Below, in pieces: positions 1-8,336 of a DNA stretch of 64,000 nucleotides; positions within the stretch are counted from its first letter, which is position 1; each line of letters opens with the position of its first letter. A program made the position numbers and the translations under genes. The notes under the pieces were generated by a model. It saw only the letters and a program-made list of their open reading frames with translations, did no database searches and was not told the DNA's origin. Source of the stretch: a virus; the IMG/VR virus record IMGVR_UViG_3300025151_008277, positions 1 to 64,000 of that record, one strand, 5' to 3'.

Positions 1-1
1 G

Positions 2-175
2 CAGCATACCATAGAGATTATGAGCGGTGAGCTGCATCGTTATAAATTTCCAGAAGGTCATGAAAAGCGCTGGAATCATAAAATTGATCAGCATCGTCCT
101 GATGATAACAGCACGTTCGAATTCAAGTATGAACGTTATGAAGATAGAGTAAAAGCGCGTGAAGCACGCGCTTAA
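2..175 (+). CDS. 3' end of hypothetical protein (partial, runs in from left edge)
   Basis: Open frame from base 2 (QHTIEIMSGELHRYKF...KAREARA) to TAA at 173-175. Confidence 0.6.
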   Translation, partial: QHTIEIMSGELHRYKFPEGHEKRWNHKIDQHRPDDNSTFEFKYERYEDRVKAREARA

Positions 176-264
176 CGCTCGGTTATAGTTTATATCGCGA
201 AAATTAACTGAAAAAAATCAGCTGCGGATCGCTAAACCATTGTAGCTACAAGGCAACAAAGTTG

Positions 265-293
265 TTGCCGAAACCCGCAAAAGCCGCCATAAT
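265..293 (+). promoter_or_regulatory. sigma70-type early promoter, copy 1
   Basis: TTGCCG-17 nt-CATAAT followed by ATT; same architecture at 574 and 826. Confidence 0.8.
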
Positions 294-324
294 ATTGGTG
301 TTGTTGATAGAACGATAGAGAAAC

Positions 325-549
325 ATGATAACGATAGATACTAAGACGATAGAGATGACGATTGATAATCATAAAGAAGCGCATGATGATAACAATATGG
401 ATGTCATCGCAGAGCTTGATTCTAATCTGCATGAGATTAGAGAATTATTGAATAAGATTCAATACATGAGTGATTATAAAGCTAGCGCTGCAAGTGAATT
501 GATTATTGAAGCGGTAGAAGATGTTTACGATTACATCCGCGAGCGGTAA
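325..549 (+). CDS. small acidic hypothetical early protein
   Basis: 74-aa ORF directly after promoter copy 1. Confidence 0.7.
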   Translation: MITIDTKTIEMTIDNHKEAHDDNNMDVIAELDSNLHEIRELLNKIQYMSDYKASAASELIIEAVEDVYDYIRER

Positions 550-573
550 AGTAAAAGTAAAGTAAAAAAACAG

Positions 574-602
574 TTGCCGAAATCCGAGCTAGAGCCGATA
601 AT
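574..602 (+). promoter_or_regulatory. sigma70-type early promoter, copy 2, with A-rich UP-like tract
   Basis: TTGCCG-17 nt-GATAAT, preceded by GTAAA repeats and an A tract (546-570). Confidence 0.8.
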
Positions 603-615
603 ATTCGAAGTTGAT

Positions 616-822
616 ATGACAAAGCAAACCGAAACGATAGAGAATGTGCTGTGCGAGATGGAAGATATTGGTCTCGTTGATAATGATAATAGCAAATACA
701 ATCTTGCAAATGAATTGCGCTGCTATATGGGAGAAGATGATTTTTATAAATTTCTAGAGTGGTCGTGCCAAGTGTGGGGCTTTGATAATCTGAGCCAGCA
801 CTTCGCATCAGCCGAAAAATAA
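616..822 (+). CDS. small hypothetical early protein
   Basis: ATG at 616 just after promoter; the TTG start at 574 in the ORF track is the -35 box. Confidence 0.7.
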   Translation: MTKQTETIENVLCEMEDIGLVDNDNSKYNLANELRCYMGEDDFYKFLEWSCQVWGFDNLSQHFASAEK

Positions 823-825
823 CAG

Positions 826-854
826 TTGCCTAAAACCGCAGAATATCCGATAAT
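826..854 (+). promoter_or_regulatory. sigma70-type early promoter, copy 3
   Basis: TTGCCT-17 nt-GATAAT preceded by AAAAATAACAG. Confidence 0.8.
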
Positions 855-861
855 ATTTGAG

Positions 862-1023
862 ATGATGAAAGAGATCAAACTAACAGAAAAAGAACGAGAT
901 AACTTGAACAACTGGTACCGTTGGGGCCAGAGAATGAGCTTCCTGAAAGCTATCCATCGTGAACTTGAACCTAAGAAAGCTGCTATGGAAGAAGCTCGCA
1001 AGTTCATCGGCATTACTAACTAA
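862..1023 (+). CDS. small hypothetical early protein
   Basis: ATG at 862, 7 nt after the -10 box; MMKEIKLTEKERDNL... Confidence 0.7.
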   Translation: MMKEIKLTEKERDNLNNWYRWGQRMSFLKAIHRELEPKKAAMEEARKFIGITN

Positions 1024-1063
1024 TCTAACTTAACCTTTAAATCTAAACTTACTTAATAATAAT

Positions 1064-1531
1064 ATGAAAGCACCTAAACTTACATGTGTCATTACCGGTC
1101 AGAGTCGCGTTACTTCTGAGAACTACCTGAAGCAAAAAGCTGATCGTCTTGGTAAGAGCGTTAGCTGGCTTCTTGAGAACTATATTAGCAAGCACGTATG
1201 CAGCCGTCTTCGTAAGGGAGTTAAGCTCAGCGAGATTACTGATAACGTTATTGCTGATCATCGCCTTACTGACCTCGTCAAGAATAACAGTAAGTGCCGT
1301 GAAGAGTTCTCTTTCGTAGATGGTGTCTATACTCCATCTAAAACCAAAGCCCCTAAGGTAGCTAAAGCCCCTAAGGCTGATACTGCTACTGAAAGCAAAG
1401 TAACCACGTTAGAAGAGGTCGTTGCTAAAGCTACTGATTCTTATATTCAAAAGAAAGTAGAAGAGCCTGTTAACCATAAAAGCACTGACGAAGTGATGAA
1501 CGATATGGTTAATAACAGCAACCCGTTCTAA
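1064..1531 (+). CDS. hypothetical basic protein with Ala/Lys/Pro-rich linker
   Basis: 155-aa ORF, KAPKVAKAPKA repeat, codon choice typical of highly expressed genes. Confidence 0.8.
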   Translation: MKAPKLTCVITGQSRVTSENYLKQKADRLGKSVSWLLENYISKHVCSRLRKGVKLSEITDNVIADHRLTDLVKNNSKCREEFSFVDGVYTPSKTKAPKVAKAPKADTATESKVTTLEEVVAKATDSYIQKKVEEPVNHKSTDEVMNDMVNNSNPF

Positions 1532-1540
1532 TAACACTCG

Positions 1541-1580
1541 GAGAGCGCTACACTAGAGAGATCTAGACTGTAGCGCTCTC
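1541..1580. repeat. inverted repeat/hairpin
   Basis: GAGAGCGCTACA (1541-1552) pairs with TGTAGCGCTCTC (1569-1580); inner CTAGA/TCTAG stem; no U tract. Confidence 0.85.
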
Positions 1581-1712
1581 TAGAGACTCTTAAGTACGAG
1601 AATCTGCTATATATAGAAACCCAAAAAAAGGGTATAGAAATCCCATGGGAAAAATTTTTTTGCAAAATTTAGGTGGTTTTTGGTATTAGGATTTGATATA
1701 ATAAATAATGTT

Positions 1713-1814
1713 ATGAGTAAAAGACAAACTGTAAGAGAGACAACTAAGAATGGAATCAGAACACGTAAGACGGTAACTGTTACTAAGAAGCGTGTTGGTA
1801 AGAGGAAGAAGTGA
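1713..1814 (+). CDS. 33-aa highly basic peptide (not in ORF track)
   Basis: MSKRQTVRETTKNGIRTRKTVTVTKKRVGKRKK*, preceded by ATAAATA box; TGATG overlap with next gene. Confidence 0.6.
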   Translation: MSKRQTVRETTKNGIRTRKTVTVTKKRVGKRKK

Positions 1815-2104
1815 TGGAAGTACAAGAAATTATTAAACAAGCATCTGGAGTACTGTTATCTGTATGTTTCGCTATTGCATACTTTCCACAGATTATCAGA
1901 ATGATTAGGAATAAGAGCTCACGAGATGTATCATTAGGTATGCTGATTCTCAACCTTGTGGGTTATTCTTCAGGATTAATCTATGTTACATCCAATGAGA
2001 TTGCTAGATTCTGGGTAGTGGTTAACTATACGTCTGGTATTGTGATGACTATACTGACTGTATTTTTCTGGAAGTACTATATTAGAAAGGAAATTGACCG
2101 ATAG
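1814..2104 (+). CDS. SemiSWEET / PQ-loop family small transporter
   Basis: Three hydrophobic segments, motif YFPQIIRMIRNKSSRDVS (PQ-loop). Confidence 0.85.
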   Translation: MEVQEIIKQASGVLLSVCFAIAYFPQIIRMIRNKSSRDVSLGMLILNLVGYSSGLIYVTSNEIARFWVVVNYTSGIVMTILTVFFWKYYIRKEIDR

Positions 2105-2178
2105 GATGGCGAAGATGGTGATTAGAATTAGGAGCCGCCGGGTAAATATAATTTGCGTGCCGGAGAGGAAGAAGAGAT

Positions 2179-2310
2179 ATGAACGAGAAAGTGAGGAAGA
2201 TACGGGTTGTTATACCGTGGAATACAGGGACAAGGCGACATAAGCCAAAGAAGGGTAAGGGATCTTATAATCGAAAGAAAAAAGGTGGTTTCGGCCGCCT
2301 TTTTTTATAA
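2179..2310 (+). CDS. arfA: ArfA-like alternative ribosome-rescue peptide, 43 aa (not in ORF track)
   Basis: MNEKVRKIRVVIPWNTGTRRHKPKKGKGSYNRKKKGGFGRLFL*; KKGKGSYxRK is the ArfA signature; purine-rich leader GGAGAGGAAGAAGAG. Confidence 0.7.
   Translation: MNEKVRKIRVVIPWNTGTRRHKPKKGKGSYNRKKKGGFGRLFL
2281..2306 (+). terminator. intrinsic terminator inside the arfA-like CDS
   Basis: AAAGGTGGT-TTCG-GCCGCCTTTTTTT: GC stem with UUCG loop and U tract ending before the TAA at 2308-2310. Confidence 0.8.
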
Positions 2311-2313
2311 ATA
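2306..2313 (+). promoter_or_regulatory. T4-type late promoter
   Basis: TATAAATA 5 nt upstream of ATG 2319; gp55-like sigma encoded in window. Confidence 0.7.
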
Positions 2314-2318
2314 TTTTT

Positions 2319-2747
2319 ATGCAAAACCCTCGAAGGCGACGACCTGTCGCAAGAAGATCCCCGGTAAGGACATTAATTACTAATTTACAGAAGTCCTTAA
2401 GAGAAATTGAAGAACGTCTACAAGCAGTAGAAGAAGAATTATACGACAGAGATGAGTATGATATTGAGTTTGAACTAGAGGAAGAGGATGCAGGGATAGG
2501 GATTGGTTCAAGTGCTCAAGTAGAAGAGCTTGGTCAACAGCTTATTAATATATTAGCTGCACAACAGTGTCAATGTACTGGTAATATAGGTATAGGTAGT
2601 TCAGTACCAGCATGTTCTGTAGTAGAAGACTTTTCTGCATGTTGTAGCCAACCAACCGGTATTGGAAGTAGTTCGGTTGGAGTCGGTAGTAGTTCCGCGG
2701 ATACTTGTAGTTTCTGTGGATCTTATTGTGATTGTTGCGGTTGTTAA
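2319..2747 (+). CDS. hypothetical protein with Cys-rich GIGSS/GVGSS repeats
   Basis: Basic N-terminus, coiled coil, acidic stretch, repeated G(I/V)GSS and C-terminal CSFCGSYCDCCGC. Confidence 0.75.
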   Translation: MQNPRRRRPVARRSPVRTLITNLQKSLREIEERLQAVEEELYDRDEYDIEFELEEEDAGIGIGSSAQVEELGQQLINILAAQQCQCTGNIGIGSSVPACSVVEDFSACCSQPTGIGSSSVGVGSSSADTCSFCGSYCDCCGC

Positions 2748-2793
2748 ATAAATAGCTTGCAAAATACAAAACATATACTATAAATATTAAGGT

Positions 2794-3513
2794 ATGAAGA
2801 AAACATTACTATTGATTGGTGCAATGGTCGTTAGTCTTAACGTCTTTGCGCAGACAAATGAGCTAAAGATTGCTAAGCCTAGCATCTCATTGGAAGCAGG
2901 CTATGTGGATCGTTTATTTAGCAAAGGTGTATCCTACACTAGTACTGCATCACAGTATCTCGGTTTAAACTTAGCTTCTCCAGCGGAGAACAACTTTATC
3001 CCAGTAGATATCTATGGTGGAGGATTGCTTCTCACTGAGAACACAGATTCCTTTTGGACTGTAGGTCTTGGTAAGGATATCAAGCTAGGAGGGTCTGATA
3101 AGTATAAACTACGTATTGACACAGCATATGCTACTCGTAAGACTGATTTAGACGAGCCAGCTAACAACGAAGTATCAGGAACCATTGCTCTTGTTAATCC
3201 ATTTGTGACACCATATATTGGTTATACTAGGGATTGGAAGATTGAGCAGAACGGTTTCACGCTAGGTGTTAAACGTGATTTTACTGTTAGTGATTGGCTA
3301 ACAATCTCACCTAATGCTGCATATCATACGTTTGACGACTATGAGTCTATTGAGTTATCTACTCGTCTTTCTGTAACTAAGTGGAGACAATTGACTCCGT
3401 TTATTGAAGGTCGTTATGTTGATAACAATTTCGACAAAGCATCGTTTAACTGGGCTTCTTATGAGGCTTCAGGAGACACAACTTGGTTAGCAGGTTTATC
3501 TTTAAACTTCTAA
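2794..3513 (+). CDS. outer-membrane beta-barrel (porin-like) protein
   Basis: Signal peptide MKKTLLLIGAMVVSLNVFA, amphipathic beta strands, C-terminal WLAGLSLNF beta-signal. Confidence 0.85.
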   Translation: MKKTLLLIGAMVVSLNVFAQTNELKIAKPSISLEAGYVDRLFSKGVSYTSTASQYLGLNLASPAENNFIPVDIYGGGLLLTENTDSFWTVGLGKDIKLGGSDKYKLRIDTAYATRKTDLDEPANNEVSGTIALVNPFVTPYIGYTRDWKIEQNGFTLGVKRDFTVSDWLTISPNAAYHTFDDYESIELSTRLSVTKWRQLTPFIEGRYVDNNFDKASFNWASYEASGDTTWLAGLSLNF

Positions 3514-3533
3514 TCTATTATAAATGAAATCGG

Positions 3534-3561
3534 AAAGAGCGGCTTCGGTCGCTCTTTTTTT
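3534..3561 (+). terminator. intrinsic terminator
   Basis: AAAGAGCGGC-TTCG-GTCGCTCTTTTTTT. Confidence 0.9.
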
Positions 3562-3562
3562 G

Positions 3563-3590
3563 TGGACTGTATTCGGAAACGCTATATAAT
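3563..3590 (+). promoter_or_regulatory. sigma70-type promoter, near-leaderless
   Basis: TGGACT-16 nt-TATAAT, ATG 8 nt downstream. Confidence 0.65.
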
Positions 3591-3598
3591 ATTGTTAT

Positions 3599-3841
3599 AT
3601 GAAATGTTCTTGTGGTAATGAAGTAGAGGCTGCTAGGGTTGAATTTGGCTTTAAGAATTGTAAGTCATGTGCTTTTTCTAACCCTGTATCTAAATATAAA
3701 GGAACTATGAACTGGTCGCATAAGACTGCTCCTACTATTCAGGTGATGACTGCTGAGTGCTTTGCTGAGCAGAAGAAATACTATATGCCTAATGGAGCAC
3801 GTAGCGCAGTTAAGAACTTCAGCAAGCATGTATGTGCGTAA
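3599..3841 (+). CDS. C4 zinc-finger protein, DksA/TraR-like finger
   Basis: CSCGNEVEAARVEFGFKNCKSC resembles the CxxCGxxIxxxR...CxxC finger. Confidence 0.6.
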   Translation: MKCSCGNEVEAARVEFGFKNCKSCAFSNPVSKYKGTMNWSHKTAPTIQVMTAECFAEQKKYYMPNGARSAVKNFSKHVCA

Positions 3842-3847
3842 ATAATT

Positions 3848-4066
3848 ATGAGTATGAATATCAGTGAATTCGAACGAGCTAAACCAACGTTAACTTATCA
3901 AGCGATAGAGAGTGCTATCAATAAGTATCAAACCTTATTAGAAAAATATCAGTATGGTAATCAGCAATTGATTATGGAGAATGCTGATGCTGTGACTATA
4001 CAATGTTATAGGGAGTTTATTGCTGACCTAAACAATATTAAAAGTCATTTTCTATCTGGACGTTAA
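3848..4066 (+). CDS. hypothetical protein
   Basis: 72-aa ORF converging on the structural block. Confidence 0.7.
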   Translation: MSMNISEFERAKPTLTYQAIESAINKYQTLLEKYQYGNQQLIMENADAVTIQCYREFIADLNNIKSHFLSGR

Positions 4067-7000
4067 TTACAAGTACAGCAGGTCTGTGCGCTAGTTGTAC
4101 CTGCACCCACAACAACAGGAGCTGGTAATACTTCTTCAGGTTCTACCTTTCCTAAGTTGACTGTTTTTAGCGTATCATAATAAGGGGTTACTTTCGGTAG
4201 CTCCTTTTTAATTTCATCTCTCAATTTTTGTTTTAACGTCTCATCTGTTATACCGAGATTTTTAATATCAACATCATACGTGTTGGTATTTTTTTCTGGT
4301 AATCCAAATTTGTAGACCTGATCTATCGTGTCAATGTAGGTTCTCTGACCAATTGGCAGTGACCACACCGTGTCTCTGTCAAAACTATGGTAATTATAGT
4401 GAGACCTGATTTCATAGTAGTCTAGCACGCGCCCATACATTTTAAACCCTTTGAGCTTTAGGTCTCTCAATAGATACTTACCTAATTGCTGTAATCTACT
4501 TGAAAAGTTCAGATAGTAGGGAGTGCTTAAGGCTCCTATGAAGACTCCAGTCCCCAGTGGATTGTCGAGTAAAAAGGTACCAGGACTGAAGGTTTCACGT
4601 TGATACTTGTGTCCGTTCACATAAAGGTCCATCCAACCCTGTTTCATGCTAACATTTATCGCGAAATGATTGTATCCGCCATTGAGTTGAGTTATGTCAT
4701 ACTCTATATGAGCTTCAGTTTTCTTAAATCCACCTGTCTTAGTAAATTTAGGTTTCGCCTTTAATACAATCTTGAAAGTATTTTTACATGCGTTATATTT
4801 TTTGAGGAAATAATAACTTGTTATCGTCTTAGTAAGATTGAGATTATTTATAACTCTTGATCCTAAGCTTCTTGTTTTTGATAAATTGAAGTCTTTATCG
4901 ACTTTATGTAATACTGTCTTATTAGAAAACGTTTCTACGATCAAATAATACTTAACATAATTTTTACCTTCAAAGTCTAAAATGACATCAATATACTTTT
5001 TAGAGTCTCTATCTAAGAAAGTTAAGTCTTTAAATGTTACTAACTCTCTAGAATTTTTAAATTTAGAAATTCTAATACCATCATGTATTGTTATAATAAA
5101 ATCCTCATCATCTACAATTACATTACTAATAAAAGACTCCGTACTACCGCCAGATACTTTCACAGTATTTTTAGTATTGTTAGCGTATTTGTTTTTATAT
5201 AATAAATTATATCTTATATTTCTTTCAGTAGGGGATTGCTGTCTAATAGTAAATGTATTTTTATTACTATCTATAGCGATTTCATTTCCTGTATCAAGTT
5301 GCGAATCTGCTTTGAAGAAATTAACATTATTAGTTTCTTTATTATCACCATCTGGCCCGACATACAGCTTATGTTTGTCTCCCAGGCTATCAGCGCTTAC
5401 AGTGCGTTTGAGATGAGTACTATTATTTGTAGAATCATAAAAGAAGTATCCTTTACTTCCTGATGGATTAAATGCCGCATAGAATCTATCTTTAGTAACG
5501 TCAATGTCGTCAATTACTAAACTACTGTAACCTGATAAGTCTACGACTTTACTAACTAAGTTGGGATTACTATTATAAATGTATATTACGTTGTTTTCAC
5601 CTAAAACATAAAACTCGCTGAAGTTATCTTTTCTCGCTATGCCTTTAATTTTTACTGGTTCATTATTTTCTAAAACCTCTATTTCATCGTAGATTTCTAA
5701 GTCGTTATTTAATAGAAGTATTTTATTACCTTGCGGTAAGAATATATTAGGTGTAACGAAATCTGTATTAAATATACCAAAGCCTTCTTCAAAGTAATTA
5801 CCTAACAGCTTATAACCTAAAGGTAAGGAAAAGTCTTGAGCGCTTAACCAGAAAGATAATGACATATCACCGTTGTGATCTGTTTTAAACTTACTAAATC
5901 TATTACCATCAAAATCTATTTCAATATCATTCTTAACATTATTAAATGTAGCAACAGAGCCTTTCTTAGTTAGTATCTCCATATCTCTTGACAGCTCAAA
6001 GCTACTTAAAGAGTTTATATGGTTAGCATAATCCAACTCTCCTATATGATAATAAGCATAGTCATTATTTTTTTCAAATGTCAAACTAGAGCTTAAATCA
6101 AATACATAAGTAGATTGAGCTCCTGCTGCAGTTACTGTATTTGTAAATGATGTACCTGATATTGTAGATAATGCTGTGTTAAAATCTTTCGCATCTGGAT
6201 TATAGTATCTATCCATCCAAAGTTTATCACCGCTAGTATTACCTGATAACCAACTACAAAGATATGTAGCGTTTATATCATCTGTAAAATTATTATTTTT
6301 AAAATCAATTCTGCGTTTAAAAACTTTATCTGATATTAAAGGGTGGTTACCTGCTACTGCTCCTAAGTGATCAATTTTTGAATCATTGATATTCAATTTT
6401 GTATAAGGAGATAGACTAGACGGTGTTGTAAAGTAAGTTAATTTAGATGGTGGAAAATGGACATCTTTCGTACCTATATTATATGATAGATATACTTTGT
6501 CATATCCTTGATTCTGTACATTACCAGTAAATAACTTTTCGTATTGTCTGTTTAAATTAGTGGGTTGAGAGTTATAATGATTATTGTTCGAGTAAAACTC
6601 TTCTACCGTAGCTTGGTTTTTCAACGGTAAAACATCTAAACCAACTTCCCAGTTATCATTATACTTTAATGTATAATTATTAGAAAAACCTAGGTAGTTA
6701 TTACTTACACTATTTGTAGTTGTATTTAAATTTAAACCAATATTGTCTTTGTTATAACTTGATAAGTAAAAACTAAAAGTATTATTAAGAGCTCCTTTGA
6801 GTCTAGTAAGAGTATTTCTTTTTATTTCAAACACAGAACTTACAGCATTACCAGCTGATGTTCCGGTTAACTCTACACTACCAGAGTTGAAAATTAATTG
6901 ATATTTTTCTAAAGGTTTGTCTAGGTCTTTTACAGGAAAAAGTTTTACCTTTTCATCTTCAATAACGTATTCAAATAGATGAGAACTTAATGTAGGTACT

Positions 7001-7497
7001 TCTCCTGATAACTTTATTGTTTCGGCAGAACAGTAACCGTAATAAGTTTTATCATTTATCTCTTTTGTAATATATAAGTATCTATTAGTACTAATATTAA
7101 GAGTAAAAAAGTATTGAGAACTTAAAGTACTAAAACTACTATCAGCAGACAGCTTTGACGATGTAATAGCGGTAACAGCTGTAGATGTTGTAGACTTAGC
7201 GTAAAATGTTCCTGCGTTAGAAATATTTTTTATGTAGGTAGTAAACTTAGAATCACTCTGCAACGTATACGGAGTTTTTAAGCTCATAACAGAGCTCAAG
7301 CTATATAAGTCAGACAAGTAGTAAGATGTATTATAGTTAGTAGTTCTATCGCTAATATTTTCAAACAAGTTATATGTTTGTAAACGTAAACCGAAGTTGT
7401 AGTTTTCTACGTTACCTTTGAACAGTAAATTTTTATCCGATGTGTGTTTCATCGTTACCGGTTTTACTGACTCTGTATCAAAGGTAAATATTTTCAT
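4063..7497 (-). CDS. large virion structural protein (tail/baseplate), LamG/ConA-like and propeller-like segments
   Basis: 1144 aa, Ser/Thr/Asn-rich, SLSFWL and HFAINV..MDLYVNG LamG-like motifs; within baseplate cluster. Confidence 0.7.
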   Translation of the reverse strand: MKIFTFDTESVKPVTMKHTSDKNLLFKGNVENYNFGLRLQTYNLFENISDRTTNYNTSYYLSDLYSLSSVMSLKTPYTLQSDSKFTTYIKNISNAGTFYAKSTTSTAVTAITSSKLSADSSFSTLSSQYFFTLNISTNRYLYITKEINDKTYYGYCSAETIKLSGEVPTLSSHLFEYVIEDEKVKLFPVKDLDKPLEKYQLIFNSGSVELTGTSAGNAVSSVFEIKRNTLTRLKGALNNTFSFYLSSYNKDNIGLNLNTTTNSVSNNYLGFSNNYTLKYNDNWEVGLDVLPLKNQATVEEFYSNNNHYNSQPTNLNRQYEKLFTGNVQNQGYDKVYLSYNIGTKDVHFPPSKLTYFTTPSSLSPYTKLNINDSKIDHLGAVAGNHPLISDKVFKRRIDFKNNNFTDDINATYLCSWLSGNTSGDKLWMDRYYNPDAKDFNTALSTISGTSFTNTVTAAGAQSTYVFDLSSSLTFEKNNDYAYYHIGELDYANHINSLSSFELSRDMEILTKKGSVATFNNVKNDIEIDFDGNRFSKFKTDHNGDMSLSFWLSAQDFSLPLGYKLLGNYFEEGFGIFNTDFVTPNIFLPQGNKILLLNNDLEIYDEIEVLENNEPVKIKGIARKDNFSEFYVLGENNVIYIYNSNPNLVSKVVDLSGYSSLVIDDIDVTKDRFYAAFNPSGSKGYFFYDSTNNSTHLKRTVSADSLGDKHKLYVGPDGDNKETNNVNFFKADSQLDTGNEIAIDSNKNTFTIRQQSPTERNIRYNLLYKNKYANNTKNTVKVSGGSTESFISNVIVDDEDFIITIHDGIRISKFKNSRELVTFKDLTFLDRDSKKYIDVILDFEGKNYVKYYLIVETFSNKTVLHKVDKDFNLSKTRSLGSRVINNLNLTKTITSYYFLKKYNACKNTFKIVLKAKPKFTKTGGFKKTEAHIEYDITQLNGGYNHFAINVSMKQGWMDLYVNGHKYQRETFSPGTFLLDNPLGTGVFIGALSTPYYLNFSSRLQQLGKYLLRDLKLKGFKMYGRVLDYYEIRSHYNYHSFDRDTVWSLPIGQRTYIDTIDQVYKFGLPEKNTNTYDVDIKNLGITDETLKQKLRDEIKKELPKVTPYYDTLKTVNLGKVEPEEVLPAPVVVGAGTTSAQTCCTCN

Positions 7498-8336
7498 TAC
7501 ATTATTCTGATGCCTGAGAATGTGGAAGCTTCAATACCGCTAAATTTTGTAAGATGTAGTGTTACTTTATCTCCTTTTTTCAAATTCATATATACAGAGA
7601 AGTTATATGTACCATGACTAAAAGTATTTGACGGAAAGCTATTAGTGGGTGCATTTGCAAACATTTGTAAAGGTTGTCGCGCGTAAAATACTGCGTTTTT
7701 ATGTATAGTCAAAAACCGCTTGTCATTGCCTATAGATCTAGGTACTCGAACCCCTATCATACCGTTGAATAACATTCCGTAATCGTCTTTTGCTTTATAG
7801 AAAAAACTGTTATTATCGATATCAGTAGTGCCGTCACCGAGTTGAACATCTGTACCTTCGACAAGACCTGTTCCTTTGAAATCGAACCTCTCAAAAAGTA
7901 GAGAACCGTTTGTATTATTTAAAGCCTTATCTACTGTGTTAGATACTGTAAAACCTACTTTTGAATTAGTGTTAGATGATATATCAGACGCGTCAATAGT
8001 AGATGTAGAAATACTATCTACAAATGTAGCTAAAGAACTAAACGCATCATTAATTCGCGACGCATTATTATTTATATCAGCTGTCACTGAGCTTAGAGTT
8101 GTTAAGATAGCATGATTAGTCTCGGCTTTAGCACTTACAGCTGAAATATCAGATGTCTTTAGATACGTACCCGAAATTCTATCAAAGAAGGTAATATTAT
8201 CGACCCCGATAATAAAATCTTTAAAATCTAATAACCGTGTACCATCAGTCGTTTCTAACAATACATAGTCCCCTATCTTGACTTCGGTGGCAATCTCTAA
8301 GTCTTCTATGTTTACTATTTCATCTTCTAAAGCCAT
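7497..8336 (-). CDS. putative tail fibre/spike protein with C-terminal C1q/TNF-like domain
   Basis: N-terminal IEDLEIATEV..DYVLLET anchor, coiled coil, C-terminal YMNLKKGDKV...STFSGIRI. Confidence 0.6.
   Translation of the reverse strand: MALEDEIVNIEDLEIATEVKIGDYVLLETTDGTRLLDFKDFIIGVDNITFFDRISGTYLKTSDISAVSAKAETNHAILTTLSSVTADINNNASRINDAFSSLATFVDSISTSTIDASDISSNTNSKVGFTVSNTVDKALNNTNGSLLFERFDFKGTGLVEGTDVQLGDGTTDIDNNSFFYKAKDDYGMLFNGMIGVRVPRSIGNDKRFLTIHKNAVFYARQPLQMFANAPTNSFPSNTFSHGTYNFSVYMNLKKGDKVTLHLTKFSGIEASTFSGIRIM

Follow-up and report, generated by a model that had tools for sequence, protein, structure and literature searches.

A 43-codon gene in a 127-kb viral record encodes a small protein whose C-terminal two thirds, judged from sequence, are ArfA-like, and whose reading frame runs through a predicted intrinsic terminator before reaching its stop codon. 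We lean towards the view that it is a minimal ArfA-type ribosome-rescue factor of about 42 residues, which, by analogy with known systems, would be made from stop-less messages under tmRNA control. The gene lies in a stretch of 64,000 nucleotides, hereafter the window, corresponding to the first 64 kb of the record (GC 32.8%; about 61% complete by the record's own estimate). What is new here is a phage member of an ArfA-like subfamily with a swapped N-terminus, together with its in-frame terminator, the annotation of ArfA in phages having been published already. The features of the locus are collected in Table 1.

Table 1. Features of the arfA-like locus, in window coordinates
Feature	Positions	Strand	Description and basis
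GC-rich leader block	2134-2163	+	GCCGCCGGG ... TGCG.GCCGG; invariant columns in the 4-locus DNA alignment
Shine-Dalgarno-like purine-rich stretch	2162-2171	+	GGAGAGGAAG, 7 nt 5' of ATG; sequence
arfA-like CDS	2179-2310	+	43 codons and TAA; ORF list, third-position bias, 73 representative relatives (profile search)
N-terminal module	2179-2229	+	residues 1-17, K.R..V.WNTG type, standing in place of the ArfA N-terminus and helix; family consensus
ArfA-like core	2230-2283	+	residues 18-35 (TRRHKPKKGKGSYNRKKK); positions 25-42 of the 44 of Pfam ArfA
Intrinsic terminator (predicted) inside the CDS	2277-2306	+	A run, stem 2284-2289, loop 2290-2293, stem 2294-2299, T7 2300-2306
TATAAATA box containing the TAA stop	2306-2313	+	may be a T4-type late promoter for the gene that follows (ATG 2319)

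The ORF is a real, conserved gene under purifying selection. It starts at ATG 2179-2181 and its 43 codons read MNEKVRKIRVVIPWNTGTRRHKPKKGKGSYNRKKKGGFGRLFL. The first-pass annotation had described the ORF and its peptide, together with the GGTGGT-TTCG-GCCGCC hairpin, the 7-T tract and the TAA at 2308-2310, and each of these details is as claimed. Conservation of the frame in relatives, on which that annotation had staked the gene, is borne out by a third-position bias against three related loci. Codons 13-32 were compared among four distinct loci from viral and metagenome contigs, namely the window, L002, L003 and L006 (L005 has the same sequence as the window, and L007 and L020 are duplicates of L002, as L021 is of L003). 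Across the six locus pairs, 5-9 synonymous versus 0-2 non-synonymous codon changes were counted in the ORF frame, and 0-2 synonymous versus 4-10 non-synonymous changes in the other two frames. Between the window and L006, the ORF frame shows 8 synonymous differences and no non-synonymous one. The two variants carried inside the ORF by an RNA-library contig (2229 G>A and 2259 G>A) also fall at third codon positions, and two close protein relatives were found. Since third-position substitutions occur in the 2179-2310 frame only, the overlapping ORF 2094-2243 is not the coding frame; this candidate was rejected, its frame being interrupted in L003 and showing changes of the non-synonymous type.

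Upstream of the gene, the GGAGA.GAAG of the Shine-Dalgarno-like stretch is conserved in the aligned loci. The GC-rich leader block is invariant in the four loci, yet no frame is conserved there, the overlapping frame being broken in L003. Its consensus fold is weak (-5.6 kcal/mol, 7 pairs), and the block is a candidate promoter, operator or RNA element. An antiterminator pairing between the upstream GCCGCC and the hairpin, looked for by eye, was dropped because it is not conserved in L002.

A profile search against the ArfA family, which the first-pass annotation had suggested, did tie the protein to ArfA. The Pfam ArfA model (PF03889) matches residues 18-35 of the window protein with 21.5 bits (E 1.6e-4), below the gathering cut-off of 25.5 bits, and is the only Pfam match of the peptide at E <= 10. 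Four close homologues score 21.2-23.6 bits, the E values, window included, ranging from 3.5e-5 to 2e-4. When the model was run over the six frames of the 127-kb record, this site gave the single match (E 8.3e-5). Searches of NCBIfam and PHROGs returned no match for the peptide. A 4-row profile searched against 1.84 billion representatives at E <= 0.001 retrieved 73 proteins, 48 of them of 60 residues or fewer, and the subfamily thus counts at least 73 clusters at 50% identity. A KG.GSY-type core is found in 63 representatives, an N-T/K-G turn in 61 and both in 55, the subfamily consensus being K.R..V.WNTG.RVHKPKKGKGSY.RK. The window protein has the basic core K-K-G-K-G-S-Y-x-R-K at residues 24-33, as KKGKGSYNRK. 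Members were located on viral contigs and in Verrucomicrobiota genome assemblies, with more distant ArfA-like forms in Clostridium.

The second feature of the gene is the terminator within its frame. The stems GGTGGT and GCCGCC enclose the loop TTCG and are followed by the T tract. The RNAfold structure extends the hairpin to 13 pairs, the A run 2277-2283 being paired with the T tract as well; the 6-pair core followed by T7 was scored at -7.6 kcal/mol in our own terminator scan. A simple terminator scan did not list the hairpin 2284-2299, probably because the A run pairs with the T tract. The layout, with the terminator ahead of the stop, was expected to recur in relatives and is kept in all four loci of the clade (window, L002, L003 and L006): the hairpin begins 15-17 nt past the Tyr codon, a run of T6-T8 follows, and the first in-frame stop comes 8-45 nt beyond the start of the T run. 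Two unrelated hairpin sequences occupy this position, GGTGGT/GCCGCC in the window and GTCGGG/CCCGAC in L002, L003 and L006. Furthermore, a difference of one T between the tracts of L002 and L006 puts their shared downstream DNA into different frames, with unrelated tails as the outcome; the DNA past the T tract is free of coding constraint. The first stops of the clade lie within or just past the TATAAATA box of the next gene, or at the next start codon, and the clade loci have no dedicated stop codon for the arfA-like frame. The box also precedes the start of the downstream gene in L002, L003 and L006; it is not enriched in the window (17 found versus 18 expected), and its role as a T4-type late promoter is a possible one. 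The read-through tails of L002, L003 and L006 are hydrophobic, with no counterpart in the window; that of E. coli ArfA is likewise hydrophobic (PMC8012679). The site thus exceeds what chance would give, being the sole ArfA match in the record, under purifying selection, and the sole terminator-like site inside an ORF.

By this layout, the message would lose its stop codon. Transcription of what looks like an early-type operon would end in the T tract 2300-2306, ahead of the TAA, so that most messages for the factor would lack a stop codon. As long as trans-translation has capacity to spare, host tmRNA-SmpB would tag the product, which would then be degraded; once truncated mRNAs flood the cell in infection, the product would escape untagged. 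Messages without a stop codon are the source of both the arfA and the brfA product, and trans-translation represses the two genes (PMC8012679). By analogy with these two genes, the locus may act as the sensor of host tmRNA capacity proposed at first pass. In addition, ribosomes crossing the hairpin could, we infer, reduce termination.

The nonstop switch claimed at first pass stands as a conserved in-frame terminator layout, and is weakened by two observations made on the window itself. Unlike in the relatives, the TAA starts 1 nt after the T tract; late-ending or read-through messages would carry the stop and encode a nearly identical protein, so that the switch would be leaky. In addition, a 401-nt contig from RNA run X15 spans 2182-2582, across the terminator, and represents either read-through RNA or library DNA; the RNA runs are known as contigs only, which cannot show 3' ends and whose uncovered stretches (e.g. 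2068-2138 in X15) are uninformative. Both observations would suit an ArfA-like rescue factor made constitutively, with no tmRNA-dependent control, the terminator overlap being a by-product of compaction at the end of an early operon. So would the normal stops, in or before terminators, of most other family members, and those of the classical ArfA-like ORFs of phages Cr30, pf16 and Arash. We nevertheless find such a by-product unlikely, since in L002, L003 and L006 the T run starts 26-45 nt ahead of the first stop and the tails, mutually frame-shifted, show no conservation, since the hairpin has kept its position relative to the motif although its sequence has changed, and since seven of the eight terminator-like sites of the 127-kb record lie outside ORFs, this site being the one inside (ATG-started ORFs of at least 25 codons were counted).

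The stop-less layout is not general in the subfamily. In the four Verrucomicrobiota loci, a normal stop is followed by a strong separate terminator, with no stop-less layout, and in a further 11 viral loci (L022-L032) no T run precedes the stop codon, which in L022, L029 and L031 falls within the hairpin itself. At the protein level, 6 of the 63 core-bearing representatives have Phe-rich tails, which suggest an in-frame T tract.

The protein itself keeps the core of ArfA and exchanges its N-terminus. In E. coli ArfA, the RF2 sheet gains a strand from Q27-E30, and the basic loop that comes next fills the mRNA channel (PMC8012679). T18-H21 of the window protein align to this RF2-pairing strand, with the family consensus tRvh. 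According to the same source, a helix of residues 15-24 lies at the decoding centre in E. coli ArfA, the N-terminus becomes ordered along with the RF2 switch loop, and the N-terminal part is required to open RF2 (PMC8012679). The D-N-A and K-A-L columns are invariant in 29 ArfA rows, and the aligned positions of the window protein read V-R-K and R-V-V; in this alignment the D-N-A..K-A-L helix and an equivalent of A18 are absent from the window protein. With hhalign, the N-terminal module is set opposite the ArfA helix without shared hallmark residues, and a gap in the phage family faces the ArfA Phe (F25). The phage protein is about 9 residues shorter than ArfA before the core. On the C-terminal side, the KH motif, which contacts the mRNA channel in E. 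coli ArfA (PMC8012679), is absent in the window clade, the window protein having K-G 5-6 residues after the Tyr; KH at the ArfA spacing occurs in 8 of the 63 core-bearing family representatives. Because the N-terminal helix columns and the KH motif are missing, the protein is filed as a member of an ArfA-like subfamily. The first-pass annotation had guessed at a distinct subfamily from the N-terminal half, and the WNTG-type module of the family consensus, devoid of the ArfA helix residues, agrees with that guess.

The WNTG module occurs elsewhere too. Two proteins encoded at L004 3926-4144 (72 residues) and L008 1935-2135 (66 residues) have RV.IPWNTGT..H in common with the family, have normal stops and lack the KGKGSY core. 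Because it is present there without the core, the module seems to be a unit in its own right.

In the mechanism that we favour, the gene product would be a minimal ribosome-rescue factor belonging to a wide, mostly metagenomic and viral subfamily. On a ribosome that has run to the 3' end of a truncated message and stalled there, the basic core HKPKKGKGSYNRKKK would occupy the vacant mRNA channel. The T-R-R-H stretch before the core would replace the ArfA strand in pairing with a class-I release factor, which would then free the peptide. The short K.R..V.WNTG module would take the place of the ArfA helix and may set which release factor, or which host's, is used. Judged from homology and layout, the protein would bind ribosomes, recruit a release factor, be under tmRNA control and benefit the phage. 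A complex prediction made with the family alignment and RF2_ECOLI scored 0.00, was run without controls and speaks neither for nor against binding.

The loss of the activating end also raises a different possibility, that of an ArfA-derived plug which performs no rescue and occupies stalled or vacant ribosomes, blocking tmRNA-SmpB or trapping the release factor to the advantage of the phage. ArfA(A18T) binds RF2 without activating it (PMC8012679), the helix and the A18 equivalent are absent here, and the WNTG module, found also in proteins without the KGKGSY core, may have a partner of its own. We hold such a plug to be decidedly improbable: a blocker destroyed by the very pathway that it blocks would be an odd design, the family consensus retains the release-factor-pairing strand position (tRvh), and in two Verrucomicrobiota assemblies the subfamily is carried by large contigs, of 356 and 748 kb, in cells to which a plug would be harmful. 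A rescue factor remains the preferred reading of the protein.

The relation to ArfA becomes clearer with the depth of the profile. Compared as a single sequence, the window protein matches the ArfA chains of the PDB weakly (E 2.4-3.3), and with the 4-row profile a motif of the tobacco mosaic virus coat protein scored equal to ArfA. A family alignment of 52 rows was also used; it omits 24 of the 73 representatives, namely the long repetitive P0013, P0057 and P0067 and 21 others, mostly with long extensions. With this 52-row profile, the six best PDB matches are all E. coli ArfA chains (E 3.1e-5 to 5.2e-4), the alignment beginning at Q27, and the coat protein falls to E 0.046. Pfam ArfA, and no other Pfam family, is hit at E <= 0.01 by 51 of the 52 rows (best 1.2e-7). 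Comparison of the family with 29 Pfam-ArfA proteins, among them several that NCBI or UniRef calls ArfA, gave an hhalign probability of 95.7% (E 9.7e-9, 36 columns). The JGI pipeline names two cluster members ArfA, and 29 of the 30 nearest Atlas clusters fall in the ArfA set (score 0.90), which we take as a lead only. The DUF7230 model was unmatched: at E <= 0.01 the 52 rows, and at E <= 10 the window protein, hit ArfA and no other family. The same search at E <= 10 gave no Pfam match besides ArfA that would point to ArfT, whose KGG-type repeats are described as a separate family (PMC6514570). Megablast and tblastn of the region and peptide against GenBank phages returned no match, and the low-complexity filter may hide the Lys-rich core. 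Rfam, searched with window positions 1-8000 at E <= 1, gave only two chance-level matches, located elsewhere.

That the gene encodes a small basic phage protein of unrelated function, for instance in nucleic-acid binding, and resembles KKGKGSY by convergence or low complexity over some 20 Lys/Gly-rich residues, as the early coat-protein tie and the poor pairwise E values might suggest, is very improbable in view of the deeper profile, the hhalign result and the Neisseria ArfA, which shares HKPKKGKGSY.RK exactly along with an in-frame terminator layout. The ArfA identity asserted at first pass accordingly survives in part: profile searches uphold it for the core, and the score below the Pfam cut-off, the missing N-terminal helix and the missing KH speak against a full ArfA. 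We place the protein, on these alignments, as a putative member of an ArfA-like subfamily rather than as a tested ArfA.

The record encodes a tail sheath, a T4-type DNA polymerase, a large terminase, an SbcC-like nuclease and a DnaB-like helicase, the polymerase being about 30% identical to those of cyanophages and pelagiphages. From this T4-type gene set and the low polymerase identity, the phage can be classed as a distant T4-like myovirus. At least half of the sampled words of its DNA were present in each of 14 marine or aquatic DNA runs, which come from at least 10 studies. No tRNA or tmRNA gene was found in the record, and no RF-1 or SmpB domain in its 127 kb.

The arfA-like gene sits within a plus-strand block of small ORFs (1-4066) that precedes a long minus-strand structural block. 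Directly upstream, a 97-residue membrane protein (1811-2104, +) matches a PQ-loop repeat (E 2.4e-11) and, weakly, MtN3/SWEET; it is SemiSWEET-like in appearance and adjoins the arfA-like gene in L002, L003 and L006 as well. The next ORF in the window (2319-2747, +) encodes 142 residues with GIGSS-type repeats and a C-terminal Cys cluster (CSFCGSYCDCCGC), has no Pfam match and is missing from L002, L003 and L006, where a 239-residue signal-peptide protein with only unnamed relatives directly follows the arfA-like gene. Further away, two adjacent small ORFs (574-822 and 826-1023, +) have similar starts (MPKSELEPIIFEV and MPKTAEYPIIFEM) and the look of a tandem duplicate, each with a promoter-like TTGCC.-17-GATAAT over its start. 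On the minus strand, 4063-7497 encodes a 1144-residue protein that ends in CCTCN and has no Pfam match.

The host is hinted at by two clues, the GC content of 32.8% and a poverty in Shine-Dalgarno sites. A Shine-Dalgarno 4-mer lies upstream of 13 of 125 long ORFs of the record, compared with 10 of 125 at a control position, and the arfA-like gene is unusual in having the GGAGAGGAAG stretch upstream. Given this scarcity, the host probably uses few such sites, and we suspect Bacteroidota or another marine group poor in them. In a survey of more than 15,000 genomes, ArfA was found only in Gammaproteobacteria and some Betaproteobacteria and, as BrfA, in the B. subtilis group; it was absent from the Fibrobacterota-Chlorobiota-Bacteroidota group (0 of 1,956 genomes) and from the Planctomycetota-Verrucomicrobiota-Chlamydiota group (PMC11633108). 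The host is probably outside the reported range of ArfA.

Subfamily members and related ORFs also occur in cellular assemblies. In Verrucomicrobiota (L009-L012), copies lie on contigs of up to 748 kb; their ...KETTP tail is conserved, and they end at a normal stop with a strong terminator downstream. The gene is sporadic in this phylum, with matches in 1 of 201 genomes of a phylum sample and 2 of 121 of an order sample, query genomes counted. Small ORFs of the HKPKKGKGSY type with other N-termini were observed, outside the reported ArfA range, in Clostridium (L014 and L017), Peribacteria (L013) and a Woesearchaeota assembly (L016). In L017 the frame crosses a long hairpin and a T8 tract, as seen by eye.

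On a tentative footing, these data allow a wider proposal, that the K.R..V.WNTG-HKPKKGKGSY proteins may possibly form a distinct release-factor-dependent rescue class, carried mainly by marine and aquatic phages, with a module suited to hosts that lack an ArfA of their own and, in this clade, an imported pathway gated by tmRNA capacity. The import reading follows from the scarcity of Shine-Dalgarno sites in the genome, in keeping with a host from, for instance, the Bacteroidota, and from a survey without ArfA in that group; if it is true, the phage would bring a whole rescue pathway into hosts devoid of ArfA. More generally, the subfamily keeps the channel and strand core and exchanges the activating end. 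If active, it would offer a natural minimal scaffold for what switches on a release factor without a stop codon. Phages would, on the same condition, manage the flood of truncated mRNAs of infection, and the conserved in-frame terminator would be a ready-made reporter of the host trans-translation load.

Published mentions of ArfA in phages, as far as we found, are two and at the level of annotation, with no study of activity or of a stop-less design. Gp30 of pelagiphage HTVC027P is annotated as ArfA and expressed early and late (PMC12753301), and g10 of Citromicrobium phage RXM is annotated as ArfA (PMC8953757); neither, as far as we found, is ascribed a stop-less design. With Neisseria ArfA as the query, tblastn detected classical ArfA-like ORFs in phages Cr30, pf16, Arash and XM05, the last known from the tblastn match alone. 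Those of Cr30, pf16 and Arash keep the classical N-terminus and end at normal stops, and Cr30 and pf16 are large phages (about 156-158 kb) with ArfA-type genes. As to their annotation, the ORFs of Caulobacter phage Cr30 (L033) and Pseudomonas phage pf16 (L034) are unannotated or overlap a hypothetical CDS, and Salmonella phage Arash gp99c (L035 308-532) is annotated as 'ribosomal protein L2'.

Among the characterized systems, BrfA (YqkK) of Bacillus subtilis resembles the phage gene in having a Rho-independent terminator within the CDS before the stop, and is repressed by trans-translation and RF2-dependent (PMC8012679). It is longer than the phage protein, with about 62 residues, and no BrfA chain appeared among the PDB sequence matches at E <= 10 (single sequence) or E <= 1 (52-row profile). 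The phage core aligns to E. coli ArfA (YhdL; PF03889; PDB 5U4I, 5H5U, 5MDV, 5MDW, 5MGP and 7OJ0) from Q27 to about G49. Both proteins are small and basic, with a core that would combine an RF2-pairing strand and a channel-filling loop, and both messages lose their stop, that of the phage by layout and that of E. coli as reported in PMC8012679. Unlike E. coli ArfA, the phage protein has neither the KH motif nor the D-N-A..A-L helix that holds A18, it shows no evident counterpart of F25, and its gene is phage-borne. The phage message would be cut by a predicted intrinsic terminator, whereas that of E. coli arfA is cut mainly by RNase III. Neisseria ArfA, so named by NCBI (L015, L018 and L019), differs in having a full classical N-terminus (NKGKIKDNALKALVKSNLF) and a chromosomal gene. 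On the other hand, its HKPKKGKGSY.RK is identical, letter for letter, to that of the phage protein. In all three Neisseria loci the hairpin begins 18-21 nt past the Tyr codon, compared with 15-17 nt in the phage clade, and is followed by T6-7, with the stop 10-67 nt later. The frame continues through the T tract, giving the ...PDFF tail that is also found in L002, L003 and L006, and meets its stop further downstream.
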